Shown in pieces: positions 1 through 4,215 of a stretch of DNA of 64,000 bases. The position numbers and the translations under genes are program-made. Source of the stretch: Candidatus Moanibacter sp. (GTDB taxonomy: Bacteria > Verrucomicrobiota > Verrucomicrobiia > Opitutales > UBA2987). The notes beneath the pieces were generated by a model. That model was not told the DNA's origin, searched no databases, and saw only the letters and a program-made list of their open reading frames with translations. Each line of letters begins with the position of its first letter. The stretch's first letter is position 1. The DNA lies in contig CBDCEW010000086.1 in NCBI GenBank assembly GCA_965215885.1, positions 20,579-84,578 of the forward strand. The letters are read 5' to 3'.

Positions 1-1
1 T

Positions 2-421
2 CTGCAAAAATCCGTACAAGCTCATCGACTCGCGCACAAACCGCCGTGCCGGTTTCGTGGTCAACGAACCCAGAAACCCTCGAAGCATCACGAACACGTA
101 TACCGCATAAGCCGGCATCCGCGGCCGGCCTGCCCCAAGATTCAATTCAGCAGCCAGAATATTCTCCTCCTCGATGTCCAGCTCCGGCAGCTCCGCTGTG
201 CGCCCTTCAAAGAACCTTCGATCTTCCAATCGAAGTTTCTTCTTCTCACGCGCATGGGCGTCCAGATCCTTCTCGATCGCCTCGATGATTTGCGCCGCGA
301 ACCCGGCCAATTCTTCAACTTCATCCAGAAAATCACGGAAATCCGTGTCTGGAACCGGCAGAATGAGGTTGCTAAGGGGCGTCTTATCGCTTTTGTTCTC
401 CTCTGTCGCACATGTTGGCAT
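2..421 (-). CDS. Probable transposase N-terminus (IS5/IS1182/ISNCY-like), runs off left edge
   Basis: Not in ORF track. ATG at 421 preceded by AAGGAG; reads MPTCATEENKSDK...GAGRPRMPAYAVYVFVMLRGF...RESMSLYGF, open to the edge. GRP motif plus helix is typical of transposase N-termini; IS-end-like GACCTTATCCGAAAAG near 549-564 on minus strand. Confidence 0.55.
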   Translation of the reverse strand, partial: MPTCATEENKSDKTPLSNLILPVPDTDFRDFLDEVEELAGFAAQIIEAIEKDLDAHAREKKKLRLEDRRFFEGRTAELPELDIEEENILAAELNLGAGRPRMPAYAVYVFVMLRGFLGSLTTKPARRFVRESMSLYGFLQ

Positions 422-680
422 GTTTAACTCCTTTCTTAATCTTAAGTTGTTAAACACTAGCATGTTGCGACACTTTTTATCAAGCCAAAAAATGATTTTT
501 CTCAAGTTTTTCTTGCGCCTTTTGCGCCTCTTTGCGGCCAATCAGTAGCTTTTCGGATAAGGTCTACCTAGTTAGAAATCGAGCTGACCCGAACGACGAA
601 GTCGTCCGGCTGGAGTTTGGCCTTTTACTAGATAAATTGCGCCCCTATCTTCTTTTTTTCTTCTAAAGTAAGTATTTAGC

Positions 681-710
681 TTGACTTGGATCTAGTTATT
701 TAACTAGATC
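681..710 (+). promoter_or_regulatory. IS promoter (-35 TTGACT) overlapped by perfect palindrome GATCTAGTTA-TT-TAACTAGATC
   Basis: 10-bp arms at 689-698 and 701-710, 8 bp upstream of ATG at 719. Confidence 0.6.
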
Positions 711-718
711 TATGGCCC

Positions 719-928
719 ATGGGATTCTCAACTAAAGTTCAAGTCATCAAGCGTAAATGTAGCGAACAGTGGTATATCAATCTGCCCTCCGCCGTGGCTC
801 AGGCGATGGAGTTTGGCAAAGGAGAGGTCGTGGAGTGGATTATTGCCGACAAAGGCCATCTGATCCTGGCCCGATCCCATGCCCCTCCCAATCCGGTGCG
901 TGTAAAAAAAACGGCTCCTCACTTCTAG
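719..928 (+). CDS. AbrB/MazE-like DNA-binding protein (IS OrfA)
   Basis: QWYINLPSAVAQAMEFGKGEVVEW matches the swapped-hairpin pattern. Confidence 0.7.
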   Translation: MGFSTKVQVIKRKCSEQWYINLPSAVAQAMEFGKGEVVEWIIADKGHLILARSHAPPNPVRVKKTAPHF

Positions 929-2337
929 AAACCTTGGAAGGGATAATTGGATCGTGTGCCAAAGCCTGTTCCACAGCGAGCTGCTTCAATCGCTTTAGAG
1001 AGCACATCTTGTGCACCCTTCTGTGTCTGGGCAGGCGTACTGTGACCGGGATCATCACGACGGGCGGACGCCAATACGATGATTGGAGCGCACACTACAG
1101 GATGTATTCGAAGAGCCGGGTCGACCCTGATGAGTGCTTCGCGCTTATCCGCGAGAAGATCGAGCGGATGCTCCCGCCCGGTAGGCCCATGGTCGTAGCA
1201 CTTGACGACACCCTACGGCAAAAAAGTGGAACTCGTATCCACGGAGTGGGCTGGCGCAGAGATCCCCTCGGTCCCAAATTCCAAGTTAACCTCGTGCTCG
1301 CCCAGCGATTCATCCAACTTTCCGCCGCCCTTGCCGCAGAGGACGGTTCGGCCCGCATGATTCCTATTGATCTGACCCATGCGCCCTCCGCGCGCAAGCC
1401 GGGGGCAAAAGCCACACAGGAGCAGGTCCAATGCTATAAAGAGAGCAAAAAGCAGCTCAAACTCAATCGACAGGCAATAGAGCGCGTTGCACTGCTCAGA
1501 GACTCTATGGAGGTCGAACGCGAACTGATCGTCGTGGCCGACGGCAGCTATACCAATGGAGACTTCCTCAAGGCTCTGCCCGAACGCACCACCATGATCG
1601 GGCGCATCCGCAAGGACGCTACGCTTTGCAAAATGCCCGGGCAGGCGCCCAAAACCGGACGCCGACCAAGCTACGGGCCAGAGATTCCCACGCCCGAACA
1701 GATTCGCAAGGACCAGGAAGTGCCGTGGGAATATGTGGAGGCCTTCGCGGCCGGTAAGCGCCACCGCTTTAAGGTCAAGAGGGTGAAGGATCTTTTGTGG
1801 CGCAAGAGCGGAGCAAAACGCCCTTTGCAGCTTTTGATCATTGCTCCGCTCCGATACCGGCTTCAGAAGAAGGCAAAGTTGCTCTACAGAAAGCCCGCTT
1901 ACCTGATTTGCACCGATCCCCAATTAGCGCTTGAAGAGTTTCTCCAATACTATCTTTGGCGCTGGCAGATAGAGCCCAACTTCCGCGATGAGAAGACCCT
2001 CTTAGGCATGGGCGAGGCCCAGGTCAGGACCGAAGCGTCCAACAGAAACCTTCCCGCCCTCAACGTGGCAGCCTACTCGATGTTGTGGCTGGCCTCCTAC
2101 CAATCCGATCCCAAGCGCCATCAACAAGGCATCTTCGAGCCGGCCAAGTGGCGCACCGATAAACGTTCCATGCAGGGCCCAACCACATCAGACTTACTGC
2201 AGCAACTCAGATACGAGACTTGGGCGGGCAGTCTGCGACCATCGAGTTTCTCCCACTTCGTTGATCCTAAAAGTGGTACCCACAAGTCGGAGAAACTCAG
2301 CCCCCATCTTGCCAGCTCCCTCTTTCAAGCCGCTTAA
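901..2337 (+). CDS. DDE transposase (OrfB), -1 frame relative to OrfA
   Basis: VVALDDT, VVADGSY and YLWRWQIEPNFRDEK (YREK motif); overlaps OrfA at an A8 run (904-911). Confidence 0.85.
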   Translation, partial: CKKNGSSLLETLEGIIGSCAKACSTASCFNRFREHILCTLLCLGRRTVTGIITTGGRQYDDWSAHYRMYSKSRVDPDECFALIREKIERMLPPGRPMVVALDDTLRQKSGTRIHGVGWRRDPLGPKFQVNLVLAQRFIQLSAALAAEDGSARMIPIDLTHAPSARKPGAKATQEQVQCYKESKKQLKLNRQAIERVALLRDSMEVERELIVVADGSYTNGDFLKALPERTTMIGRIRKDATLCKMPGQAPKTGRRPSYGPEIPTPEQIRKDQEVPWEYVEAFAAGKRHRFKVKRVKDLLWRKSGAKRPLQLLIIAPLRYRLQKKAKLLYRKPAYLICTDPQLALEEFLQYYLWRWQIEPNFRDEKTLLGMGEAQVRTEASNRNLPALNVAAYSMLWLASYQSDPKRHQQGIFEPAKWRTDKRSMQGPTTSDLLQQLRYETWAGSLRPSSFSHFVDPKSGTHKSEKLSPHLASSLFQAA

Positions 2338-2710
2338 GAATTAACTCGTAGTTTCTACGTGACTCGAAACGGGCCAAACTCCAGCCGAACGACGAAGTCG
2401 TCCGGCTACGGGTTGGGGGCACCAGCAATGGGCAGTGCGGAGGATAAATTGTAGCGAATTCTTCGGCTTCGGGTGTTGGACAAAATAACCAACATTCCAT
2501 TCTTCCATCCTTCCATTCTACTTTTCCCGCTTTCGCGTGTTTTCGCGTCTTTAGCGGGCAATACCTCCTCGAACGAGAACGACTTTCGAGGGAAATTAAA
2601 GAAATCAACAGGGAAAGATTGACTACACTTAATAGAAACGCGCCGGTTATTTCCTCGCCGTGCCTGATTCGTTGCTCGCCCTCCTACGTTGGTTGCGCTC
2701 GTAGGTTGAT

Positions 2711-3904
2711 TTAGGGCTTTCGGCGCGAGAAGCGGACTTTACTTTTCACCCCGGAGGGAGATTGGGTGAGGTCGCCGGCGTAGTGGTCGTCGCCGACGAG
2801 GATGAGGCTGTAGGTGGAGGAGGAGGGCTGACCGAAGACAGTGGTGCGGAGGGAGAAAGCCAGTTCTCCGGTCCGTGGATTCAGGTCGAATTCCGTAATC
2901 GCGATGGGCGTTCCTCGCGAGGCGGAAAAGGTGAGCGTGAAGCGGCCGTCATCGTTTTGCAGCTGGAAACCGGCCGATCCCATGGTGCCGCCGTGACGGA
3001 TGTGGAATTCGCCGGCCATTTTGTCGGAAACGGGGGTGGGGTCGCGGTAGAACCCGGTGGCTTGCCATTGGGAGAGGAATCCCTCCTGTTTATCCTTTTC
3101 GGGGAGGATGAAGAAGAAATCGCGCGTGAGGGAGGAATGCTCCCACGGAATCTGATCCTCGCCACTTTCCTGCATGACATCGACGCGGACACGCTTGAAG
3201 ATCGTTTCGATGGGCAGCGCGTCGCTCTGCATATGGGTGAGAAACCTCTCCGTGTAGAGCCCGTTTTTGCGGGTGCCGTCGGAGGCGTACTGTCCGGGCG
3301 CGGTGGCGAATGCGAGGAGGGTATTGGCTCCCGATTCCATGGCGGCCAATCCACTTCCCCGATCTTCTTCGAGGGGGGGCAGGTATTCTCGGCATGCGTC
3401 GATGATAAGGATATTCACCTCGTTGTCGGTCTCGTTAAAGAGCTGGGCGACTCGACGAGCATTGAGGAATTCCCGATCGAGATCGGGCGTGCTTCGGATT
3501 TTCCCAAAGGCTACGGGAACGAGGTAGTTGATTCCACCGAGCTGGAGCCCGTGTCCGGAGAAATAAAAGAGCCCGATATCGGCGCCTTCGAGGCGTTTAC
3601 GGAACTCCGCGAGGCCGTTCTCCATTTCAGCCAGCTCGGAATCTGCGAGATGGATGACTTCGAATCCGAGTCTGTCCAACGTGCGTTTCATCTCCCTGGC
3701 ATCATTGAGCGTGTTGCGGAGCGGGGAATCGGCGTAGGTTCCGATACCGATCACGAGGGCGACCTTGCGCTCGTCGCGCATCTTGGCGAAGGGATCGTCT
3801 TCGCCGATGAGGGGGAAGGATAGGGAAAGAAGGAACCCGCCGGCGAGGGAGGCGAGGATCAATCGCGGTGCTGAGGAAAATTGAATGGAGGGTCGTGACA
3901 GCAT
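2711..3904 (-). CDS. Secreted caspase-family (peptidase C14) protein with C-terminal beta-rich domain
   Basis: Signal-like N-terminus; ALVIG, YFSGHG (His), IIDACR (Cys), FATAPG, QIPW. Confidence 0.85.
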   Translation of the reverse strand: MLSRPSIQFSSAPRLILASLAGGFLLSLSFPLIGEDDPFAKMRDERKVALVIGIGTYADSPLRNTLNDAREMKRTLDRLGFEVIHLADSELAEMENGLAEFRKRLEGADIGLFYFSGHGLQLGGINYLVPVAFGKIRSTPDLDREFLNARRVAQLFNETDNEVNILIIDACREYLPPLEEDRGSGLAAMESGANTLLAFATAPGQYASDGTRKNGLYTERFLTHMQSDALPIETIFKRVRVDVMQESGEDQIPWEHSSLTRDFFFILPEKDKQEGFLSQWQATGFYRDPTPVSDKMAGEFHIRHGGTMGSAGFQLQNDDGRFTLTFSASRGTPIAITEFDLNPRTGELAFSLRTTVFGQPSSSTYSLILVGDDHYAGDLTQSPSGVKSKVRFSRRKP

Positions 3905-3911
3905 GATATAT

Positions 3912-4215
3912 CCTTACTATAACCGACTGTCGGACTTGTACGTGTTTAGCGTGATGGCAAAATGCCTTGGCTCGATGTTGGAAGCAAAGGGTCAAGCCTT
4001 AGAAGTGTCTGTTTTTCGGGGTCAGCCGCCTTAACAAATTGCCCTAAGCCTGCGAAGGGCGGTTTGTAAGGCCTGACCCCCTCAGCGAAGCGGAAAAACA
4101 GCCACTTCTTAAGGTCATGACCCCGAACGGCGAATAATTCTGCAAGAACTTTAAGACCATAAACCATCTCGCTAAACATGTACTCGGACTTGCCCGACAG
4201 TCGGTTATAGTAAGG
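3912..4215. mobile_element. Non-autonomous MITE (~300 bp)
   Basis: 22-bp perfect inverted repeat CCTTACTATAACCGACTGTCGG (3912-3933, 4194-4215) with further imperfect extension; no credible ORF inside. Confidence 0.7.

Follow-up and report, generated by a model that had tools for sequence, protein, structure and literature searches.

What kind of mobile element places a 69-residue AbrB-like protein (OrfA) ahead of a DDE transposase (OrfB) that is read in another frame, and how is the second product made? The question arises near the start of the window, the whole 64,000-nucleotide stretch of Candidatus Moanibacter sp. DNA analysed here. A sequence-only reading of this DNA had proposed that OrfA represses its own promoter through a palindromic operator, and that a -1 frameshift across a run of eight adenines produces an OrfA-OrfB fusion that is the active transposase. 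With a probability of roughly 70%, our answer is that the locus is an intact member of an IS701-like clade in which a recoding throttle, an OrfA brake and a hairpin target rule are linked.

The element and its surroundings

Neither the ends of the element nor the hairpin duplication at its target had been noticed in the sequence-only reading. Boundaries common to the copies in the host genome delimit an insertion sequence with the following outline (window coordinates).

589 to 609, no strand: left target duplication of 21 bp, in the form of a REP-like hairpin whose loop is GAA, equal to 2385 to 2405
610 to 2384, plus strand: whole insertion sequence, 1775 bp
610 to 622, plus strand: left terminal inverted repeat, CTGGAGTTTGGCC, perfect complement of 2372 to 2384
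2372 to 2384, minus strand: right terminal inverted repeat, 13 bp, complementing 610 to 622
2385 to 2405, no strand: right target duplication, the same 21-bp hairpin, identical to 589 to 609

The host genome holds eight near-full copies, of which one is decayed and the other seven are at least about 97% identical, together with one fragment. A family consensus of the terminal repeat was derived from 114 left and 116 right homolog ends. Between the inverted repeats, the ORF list and Pfam give OrfA and OrfB alone, and an adjacent toxin gene is absent.

Upstream, positions 1-566 (minus strand) hold the terminal part of another insertion sequence, present in high copy number, about 1.93 kb long and with an open frame of 556 aa; it continues beyond the window start and ends about 20 bp short of the target hairpin at 589. 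This second element is represented by 163 BLAST pieces in the host genome, many at 99% identity, and the first 140 residues of its ORF gave no Pfam or NCBIfam match. Downstream, a 397-aa minus-strand ORF at 2711-3904 resembles, by eye, a secreted caspase-family (peptidase C14) protein, and a stretch of about 300 bp at 3912-4215 contains nested imperfect inverted repeats (3912-3945/4182-4215, 3938-3957/4164-4183 and 4001-4017/4093-4109).

The frame break is conserved across many phyla

The 69-residue OrfA and the DDE frame displaced by -1 across the A8 run lie exactly where they had first been placed, and the transposase frame ends at 2337.

719 to 928, plus strand: OrfA, 69 aa, assigned to the AbrB/MazE/SpoVT swapped-hairpin fold by a weak PF04014 match, an AlphaFold model and structural matches
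904 to 911, plus strand: A8 recoding site, at which insertion of one A, or alternatively a -1 shift, brings OrfA and OrfB into one frame
904 to 2337, plus strand: OrfB, IS701-like DDE transposase matching NF049999, in the -1 frame relative to OrfA
1204 to 1209, 1540, and 1951 to 1995, plus strand: OrfB catalytic residues D101/D102, D213, and the Y-x2-R-x3-E-x6-K motif

In the OrfA frame the run reads GTA AAA AAA ACG, and the stop follows four codons past ACG. For comparison we took the best 79 of 382 genome matches and the best 80 of at least 540 metagenome matches, giving 159 loci from phyla that include Verrucomicrobiota, Bacteroidota, Planctomycetota, Acidobacteriota, Chloroflexi and Proteobacteria. 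OrfA lies upstream of OrfB in 151 of these 159 best-match loci; seven have no flank and one has no OrfA. Clustering of the best-match loci at 90% identity left 131 lineages, with a frame offset of -1 in 121, of +1 in nine, and an internal deletion in one. The -1 lineages carry A9 (83), A8 (34), A10 (1), A7 (1) or no run (2), and the +1 lineages carry A9 (6) or A8 (3). An A8-A10 run is kept in 127 of the 131 best-match lineages, the exceptions including L162, L128 and L173 with A7 only or a broken run, while 179.7 kb of OrfB body contain just 10 runs of A8 or longer; the conservation of the run, set beside its rarity elsewhere, indicates that the recoding site is under selection. The alignment of homologs therefore bears out the proposed run and offset, and an intact in-frame fusion, which would speak for one continuous ORF, was found in 0 of the 131 lineages. 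Two apparent fusions were examined and rejected: the fused ORF of L153 results from an internal deletion (1596 bp), and the A7 copy on C94 is a decayed +1 copy with a second frameshift.

Homopolymers are prone to error, and the offset could in principle be a sequencing or assembly artefact in one continuous gene. This explanation has next to no probability, since the offset is repeated in seven of the eight genome copies, in contigs of three public runs and in 121 of the 131 best-match lineages. The seven host-genome copies all have A8, the contigs span the run with no indel, and one RNA-library contig crosses it with A8.

OrfB belongs to an IS701-like clade

OrfB scored 193.6 bits against the NCBIfam model NF049999 (transpos_IS701_3; cutoff 170), the sole model whose cutoff it passed, and 67 against the older IS701 model NF033540, below the cutoff of 150. 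The IS4 models gave 16-49 bits, below all of their cutoffs (115-250), and no IS1 or IS3 model in Pfam or NCBIfam matched the transposase. Among 45 homologs D101, D102, D213, R353, E357 and K364 are invariant and Y350 nearly so; the IS4-type motif Y-(2)-R-(3)-E-(6)-K is present in OrfB as Y350, R353, E357 and K364. A natural fused homolog, P0125, gave a predicted structure with a pLDDT of 89, and its best Foldseek match was the Tn5 transposase (E 8e-10). The transposase is IS701-like with a Tn5-type fold, and not of the IS1/IS3 type.

IS701 elements generally have a single transposase ORF. The clade described here shares with that family an OrfB above the NF049999 cutoff, but differs from it in its length of 1.7-1.85 kb, its two ORFs, its full YREK motif and its hairpin repeats of 18-32 bp. 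The part of PMC2266710 available to us gives the family a size of 1400-1550 bp, 4-bp repeats and a YREK motif from which the tyrosine is mostly absent; because this size and this repeat length both fail to apply, we speak of an IS701-like element rather than of a textbook IS701. A similar end signature is found in four relatives at about 25% identity, which have a single ORF, no OrfA/AbrB gene and 5-bp repeats (CTAAG, CTAAG, ATTAG and CTCAG); three of the four were scanned, and all three exceed the IS701 model cutoff.

OrfA is an AbrB-type protein with a predicted operator

The similarity of OrfA to the Pfam model MazE_antitoxin (PF04014) is weak (E=0.004, 17.5 bits, below the cutoff of 24.7), and 34 of 65 members of its family match the model at E<=0.01, with a mean column identity of 63% over 65 rows. 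No PDB sequence matched OrfA under E 0.1. The AlphaFold model (pLDDT 85) has the order beta-beta-alpha-beta-beta, with strands at residues 7-11, 16-20, 39-44 and 47-51 and a helix at 24-30. The nine best of the 14 rows of a wide structure search belong to the AbrB superfamily (C56, SpoVT, AbrB, MazE, VapB and their kin), the best with Z 4.6 and an rmsd of 2.3 over 51 residues, a match that is low in absolute terms. MazE and AbrB also led the Foldseek list, with no match under E 0.001, and the predicted homodimer scored 0.40 against a mark of 0.42, which we count neither way. Together the predicted fold and its structural neighbours uphold the earlier assignment of OrfA to the AbrB/MazE swapped-hairpin fold.

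Such a fold would also be expected if OrfA were a passenger antitoxin, or the remnant of a toxin-antitoxin pair, with no role in transposition. Beyond the MazE-like Pfam match and fold, one OrfA homolog (L174) lies near a PIN gene. We regard this explanation as very improbable, however: the element contains no toxin gene, OrfA has no long antitoxin tail, its neighbours elsewhere are mostly transposases, and it is retained in 151 of 152 assessable best-match loci with a fixed frame offset.

The leader of OrfA contains three further features.

628 to 631, plus strand: CTAG half-site beside the left end, conserved in left ends, possibly a second OrfA site
681 to 686, plus strand: -35-like hexamer TTGACT, part of a putative promoter suggested by sequence and by its offset in homologs
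689 to 710, no strand: palindrome of 10+2+10, putative OrfA operator, with a conserved core CTAG-N8-CTAG at 692 to 707

The palindrome that had been reported is confirmed, with perfect arms at 689-698 and 701-710 around an unpaired TT. The arms are identical in eight of eight aligned host-genome copies, in which the centre base 700 alone varies, and arms of at least 10 bp occur in 25 of 112 homolog leaders against about 0.2 expected from shuffles. The core CTAG-N8-CTAG is exact in 114 of 123 best-match lineages and within one mismatch in 119 of 123, but has no exact occurrence in 198.7 kb of coding body. Among the four misses are L100 and L101, which have a diverged OrfA and carry CATG-N8-CGTG in place of the usual core, possibly a co-varied pair of protein and operator seen in one lineage only. 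An end-proximal CTAG is a feature of left ends: 103 of 114 have it, 100 at nt 18-19, whereas it occurs in 5 of 116 right ends. The further statement that the palindrome overlaps the promoter remains a prediction, as a sigma-70 scan found no consensus promoter. The sequence TTGACT at 681-686 lies 11 nt ahead of the first CTAG, a spacing that homologs show more often than any other for a -35-like hexamer (21 of 107).

We propose that OrfA would act as a brake: bound to the CTAG-N8-CTAG that separates the -35 box from the start codon, it would repress the single promoter, and it possibly also covers the CTAG half-site at the left end. Repression is suggested because the operator sits just past the -35-like hexamer, and from the sequence pattern we consider it very likely that OrfA binds the predicted operator and represses the promoter.

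Slippage on the A-run as the probable route to the fusion

The brake would be combined with a throttle. Most transcripts would yield only the 69-residue OrfA, whereas RNA polymerase would occasionally slip on the A8-A9 run and the altered transcripts would encode the OrfA-OrfB transposase. The clearest pointer comes from one genome, G301, with 17 copies of an element with the +1 offset and A9, 16 of them at 99.9-100% identity and each with its own hairpin repeat of 18-25 bp; all 17 share one out-of-frame A9. Since near-identical copies each have their own hairpin repeat, the +1/A9 form must be transposing. Other +1/A9 rows are scattered on a FastTree tree of 126 rows, from which lineages with stops, a split OrfB or fewer than 380 aa were left out: the five rows require five changes, at least three of them forced by well-supported branches. 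The same form was also found in scattered lineages from further assemblies. The part of PMC3711429 available to us treats both offsets within one family as a criterion for transcriptional realignment, that of PMC1088944 reports IS elements using A8-A9 runs, and that of PMC5009743 states that +1 ribosomal frameshifting had not been identified in any IS at the time of its writing. Transcriptional slippage is, judging from these patterns, probably the main route to the fusion.

The obvious rival is that of the sequence-only reading: the OrfAB fusion would be obligatory and made chiefly by the classical programmed -1 shift of ribosomes on A_AAA_AAA, as in IS1/IS3. Ribosomal shifting keeps some plausibility because the -1 offset dominates (121 of the 131 best-match lineages) and, among the 119 run-bearing lineages with this offset, 116 have the heptamer A_AAA_AAA in the OrfA frame; moreover, the base after the run is C in 91%, and IS1, in the portion of PMC4066793 available, shifts without a known stimulator. 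Yet the +1/A9 variant, which reached 17 copies in G301, shows that a -1 shift by ribosomes cannot account for every member of the family. In addition, none of the 44 eligible lineages, in which the run starts at codon position 3, has the 7-A heptamer only, the classic A_AAA_AAG is rare (9 of 119 lineages), and stimulators were not found. In 64 of 128 lineages folded (every second one), no 3' RNA structure was conserved (mean z about 0) and no conserved 5' structure was seen near the junction, where Shine-Dalgarno enrichment was likewise absent (6/128 versus 6/128). A minus-strand hairpin at 913-933, listed by the sigma-70 scan, depends on G-T pairs of the minus strand and was rejected as a stimulator in the mRNA. 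We therefore hold ribosomal shifting as the main route to be unlikely, although it may contribute in -1 copies such as 610-2384. The -1 frameshift logic of the sequence-only reading accordingly stands as regards its recoding layout, which is conserved over many phyla, and falls short in that a ribosomal -1 shift does not cover the +1/A9 members.

A different account would make OrfA a stand-alone repressor and have OrfB arise from re-initiation near the OrfA stop, the A-run merely stalling ribosomes or polymerase. The match of OrfB to the IS701_3 model begins at model position 3, a transposase-frame ATG lies at or shortly past the OrfA stop in L186 and L243, and a run-less lineage, in which the OrfA stop overlaps a CTG of the OrfB frame, has transposed. 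By contrast, the first 25 OrfB codons are free of ATG, GTG and TTG in 43 of 128 lineages, the homology of OrfB extends up to the A-run, and the database proteins P0058, P0125 and P0129 are in-frame fusions joined exactly at the run. On this balance re-initiation as a general route is improbable.

The run-less lineage itself is centred on one genome, G304 (L203, L206, L209, L211 and L213; also L046), and has OrfA, the operator and hairpin targets but no A-run. Three of its five run-less copies are 98.5-99.4% identical to the reference and one has a frameshift; the CTG that overlaps the OrfA stop is a candidate start of OrfB in this lineage. A survey of 301 genomes of the phylum of G304 gave a match in 2 genomes. 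As four of the five copies have hairpin repeats, the fusion may be dispensable in the G304 lineage. The claim that the fusion is the active transposase is consequently not established: besides this five-copy lineage, OrfB alone spans the whole IS701_3 model, and OrfA is a separate gene in IS66- and IS1182-type elements.

Near-identical copies that differ in run length (L014, L021 and C94) and three full-length fused proteins on record would agree with phase variation at the DNA level, whereby replication slippage on the run turns rare copies ON as in-frame fusions. Such ON copies should spread, yet no best-match lineage is an intact in-frame fusion, and 17 of 17 G301 copies retain the out-of-frame A9; we consider phase variation quite improbable and retain transcriptional slippage as the preferred reading.

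Whole hairpins are duplicated at the target

Hairpins, defined by a stem of at least 6 bp within 3 nt of the element end, stand at the start of 208 of 222 flanks (106 of 110 left and 102 of 112 right), compared with 56 of 3031 control positions. Their loops are mostly of 2-4 nt, and the direct repeats of 18-32 bp correspond to the whole hairpin. All six complete host-genome copies are bounded by direct repeats of 20-32 bp, with a hairpin that differs from copy to copy, and the REP-like motif of 589-609 recurs at 17 further places in the host genome without an element. Among 91 loci with both flanks, 28 have repeats of 18-30 bp, 60 have none and three have repeats of 3-5 bp. The 28 repeats consist of the hairpin plus 0-2 nt per side. 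The repeat-less loci mostly have unlike hairpins on the two sides, which we attribute to collapsed assemblies or to recombination between copies; in L023/L024, from one complete chromosome, the flanking hairpins are swapped, as expected from such recombination. In long-contig genomes, hairpin repeats were found in 16 of 16 cases in G301 and 4 of 4 in G304; in G308 the count was 1 of 5 because the flanks covered were only 19-21 nt long, and a separate comparison gave repeats of 18-25 bp at its four loci. Tandem copies or ends separated by a single hairpin were observed in L227 and L237 (G308:C1, about 1.017-1.022 Mb) and in L026, L092 and L108, an arrangement that we read as reuse of the duplicated hairpin as a target.

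The transposase would recognise an extruded hairpin or cruciform by its shape rather than by its sequence, and would attach the ends of the element to the 5' foot of each of the two stem-loops. Repair of the gaps would then duplicate the entire hairpin, and because it does so, the length of the repeat would be set by the hairpin. The simplest mechanism, in which an extruded cruciform is attacked at its 5' feet, is drawn as pathway b in the portion of PMC5678879 available to us. The position and extent of the repeats argue strongly for an extruded cruciform as the intermediate. With REP-like repeats or terminators as targets, insertions would be kept mostly intergenic.

A bolder interpretation is that these elements form an undescribed IS subgroup, with a sequence-independent, cruciform-targeting integrase that cuts at the feet of any 7-13-bp stem-loop, and with an AbrB domain carried on a portable cassette that represses as free OrfA and, in the fusion, helps to engage the left end or the distorted target. 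We regard this as tentative. The link between AbrB and targeting comes solely from the four relatives that have neither feature, and the run-less G304 lineage, with hairpin targeting and no evident fusion, counts against it.

OrfA and its operator beside other transposases

An OrfA-only search of 301 genomes found a match in 27. OrfA also occurs beside transposases of the IS66 (L180, L184, L188 and L243), IS1182-like (L186 and L191), IS630 (L185) and IS4 (L198) types; at the three junctions read in IS66-, IS1182- and IS4-type elements, OrfA and the transposase are separate genes. A relaxed operator motif, defined after the leaders had been viewed, is present in 10 of 14 OrfA leaders outside the clade against 9.7% of shuffles, and in L243 an exact CTAG-N8-CTAG precedes OrfA and an IS66 transposase. 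The presence of the operator in leaders of IS66 and other types indicates that the site follows OrfA and not the transposase. OrfA had no match in the plasmid collection and one locus in viral contigs. In L179 (1843-3177) an OrfA homolog with a CTAT-N8-ATAG site lies upstream of a frame holding a plasmid Rep3-type domain; this is probably an interrupted element.

The host genome also contains a 1.63-kb element, judged by eye to be IS4-like (G000:C67:17966-19586), which carries a divergent OrfA homolog at one of its ends and is present in some 30 additional full copies. The inspected copies have an OrfA stop at codon 3 and a damaged operator; a single partial relative (G000:C61:13622-13798) retains OrfA intact, together with a perfect ATAG-N8-CTAT site. 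The element may have been able to expand because its repressor was lost. It is conceivable, though doubtful, that the AbrB-plus-operator cassette is a portable regulator of IS701-, IS66-, IS1182-, IS4- and IS630-type elements, joined to a cruciform-targeting transposase and a double-duty AbrB domain.

Comparison with known systems

The open literature that we searched contains no description of this element, while ISfinder, subscription reviews and the supplements of PMC2266710 and PMC3711429 may already list members. Each ingredient is known from some other family, and it is their combination that was not found in the open literature searched; nor were an AbrB-type regulator with its operator across IS families, or whole-hairpin duplication in an IS701-like clade. 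The AbrB fold joins the known regulators of insertion sequences, and its predicted operator accompanies OrfA even where the transposase belongs to an unrelated family. The naturally occurring -1, +1 and run-less forms of one gene can serve to tell transcriptional slippage from ribosomal frameshifting. Because the repeat ends mark the site of enzyme attack, cruciform extrusion in vivo becomes directly testable, and hairpin targeting suggests a structure-targeted, gene-sparing integration tool. On the practical side, automatic annotation splits or mis-starts the OrfA and OrfB genes.

With the AbrB, MazE, SpoVT and VapB regulators, including C56 of pSSVi, OrfA shares the fold; it differs in being encoded by an insertion sequence, in having no toxin partner and in scoring below the Pfam cutoff. 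The OrfA proteins of the IS1 and IS3 families carry a helix-turn-helix or a zinc finger, whereas OrfA here has an AbrB fold, the catalytic part is Tn5/IS4-like, the operator is internal at about 80 bp from the left end, and both -1 and +1 offsets occur. IS4 elements in the strict sense have no transposase frameshift and have 7-13-bp repeats, in contrast to the conserved frame break seen here. IS1630 of Mycoplasma fermentans (IS30 family) is reportedly, by the title of its description, a precedent for hairpin duplication, although its transposase family is unrelated. In its conserved layout the present element resembles IS1/IS3, in which, according to the part of PMC5009743 available, an upstream DNA-binding ORF is joined by recoding to a catalytic ORF; that both OrfA and OrfAB are made here is a prediction, and +1 and run-less lineages occur. 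As far as the available parts of PMC1088944 and PMC3711429 go, A8/A9 runs and both offsets are likewise shared with IS630-type and other slippage elements, from which the transposase family here differs; those parts make no mention of IS701 or of an OrfA of AbrB type. In its targeting the clade comes close to IS1272, a stem-loop-replacing member of the IS1182 family: the portion of PMC5678879 available describes the same structure-specific recognition of cruciforms, but IS1272 deletes the target hairpin that the present clade duplicates, and duplication of a whole hairpin appears there as a predicted rather than a demonstrated outcome. The clade, with 382 matches in the genome collection and at least 540 in metagenomes, provides a common natural example of insertion sequences that duplicate whole DNA hairpins.
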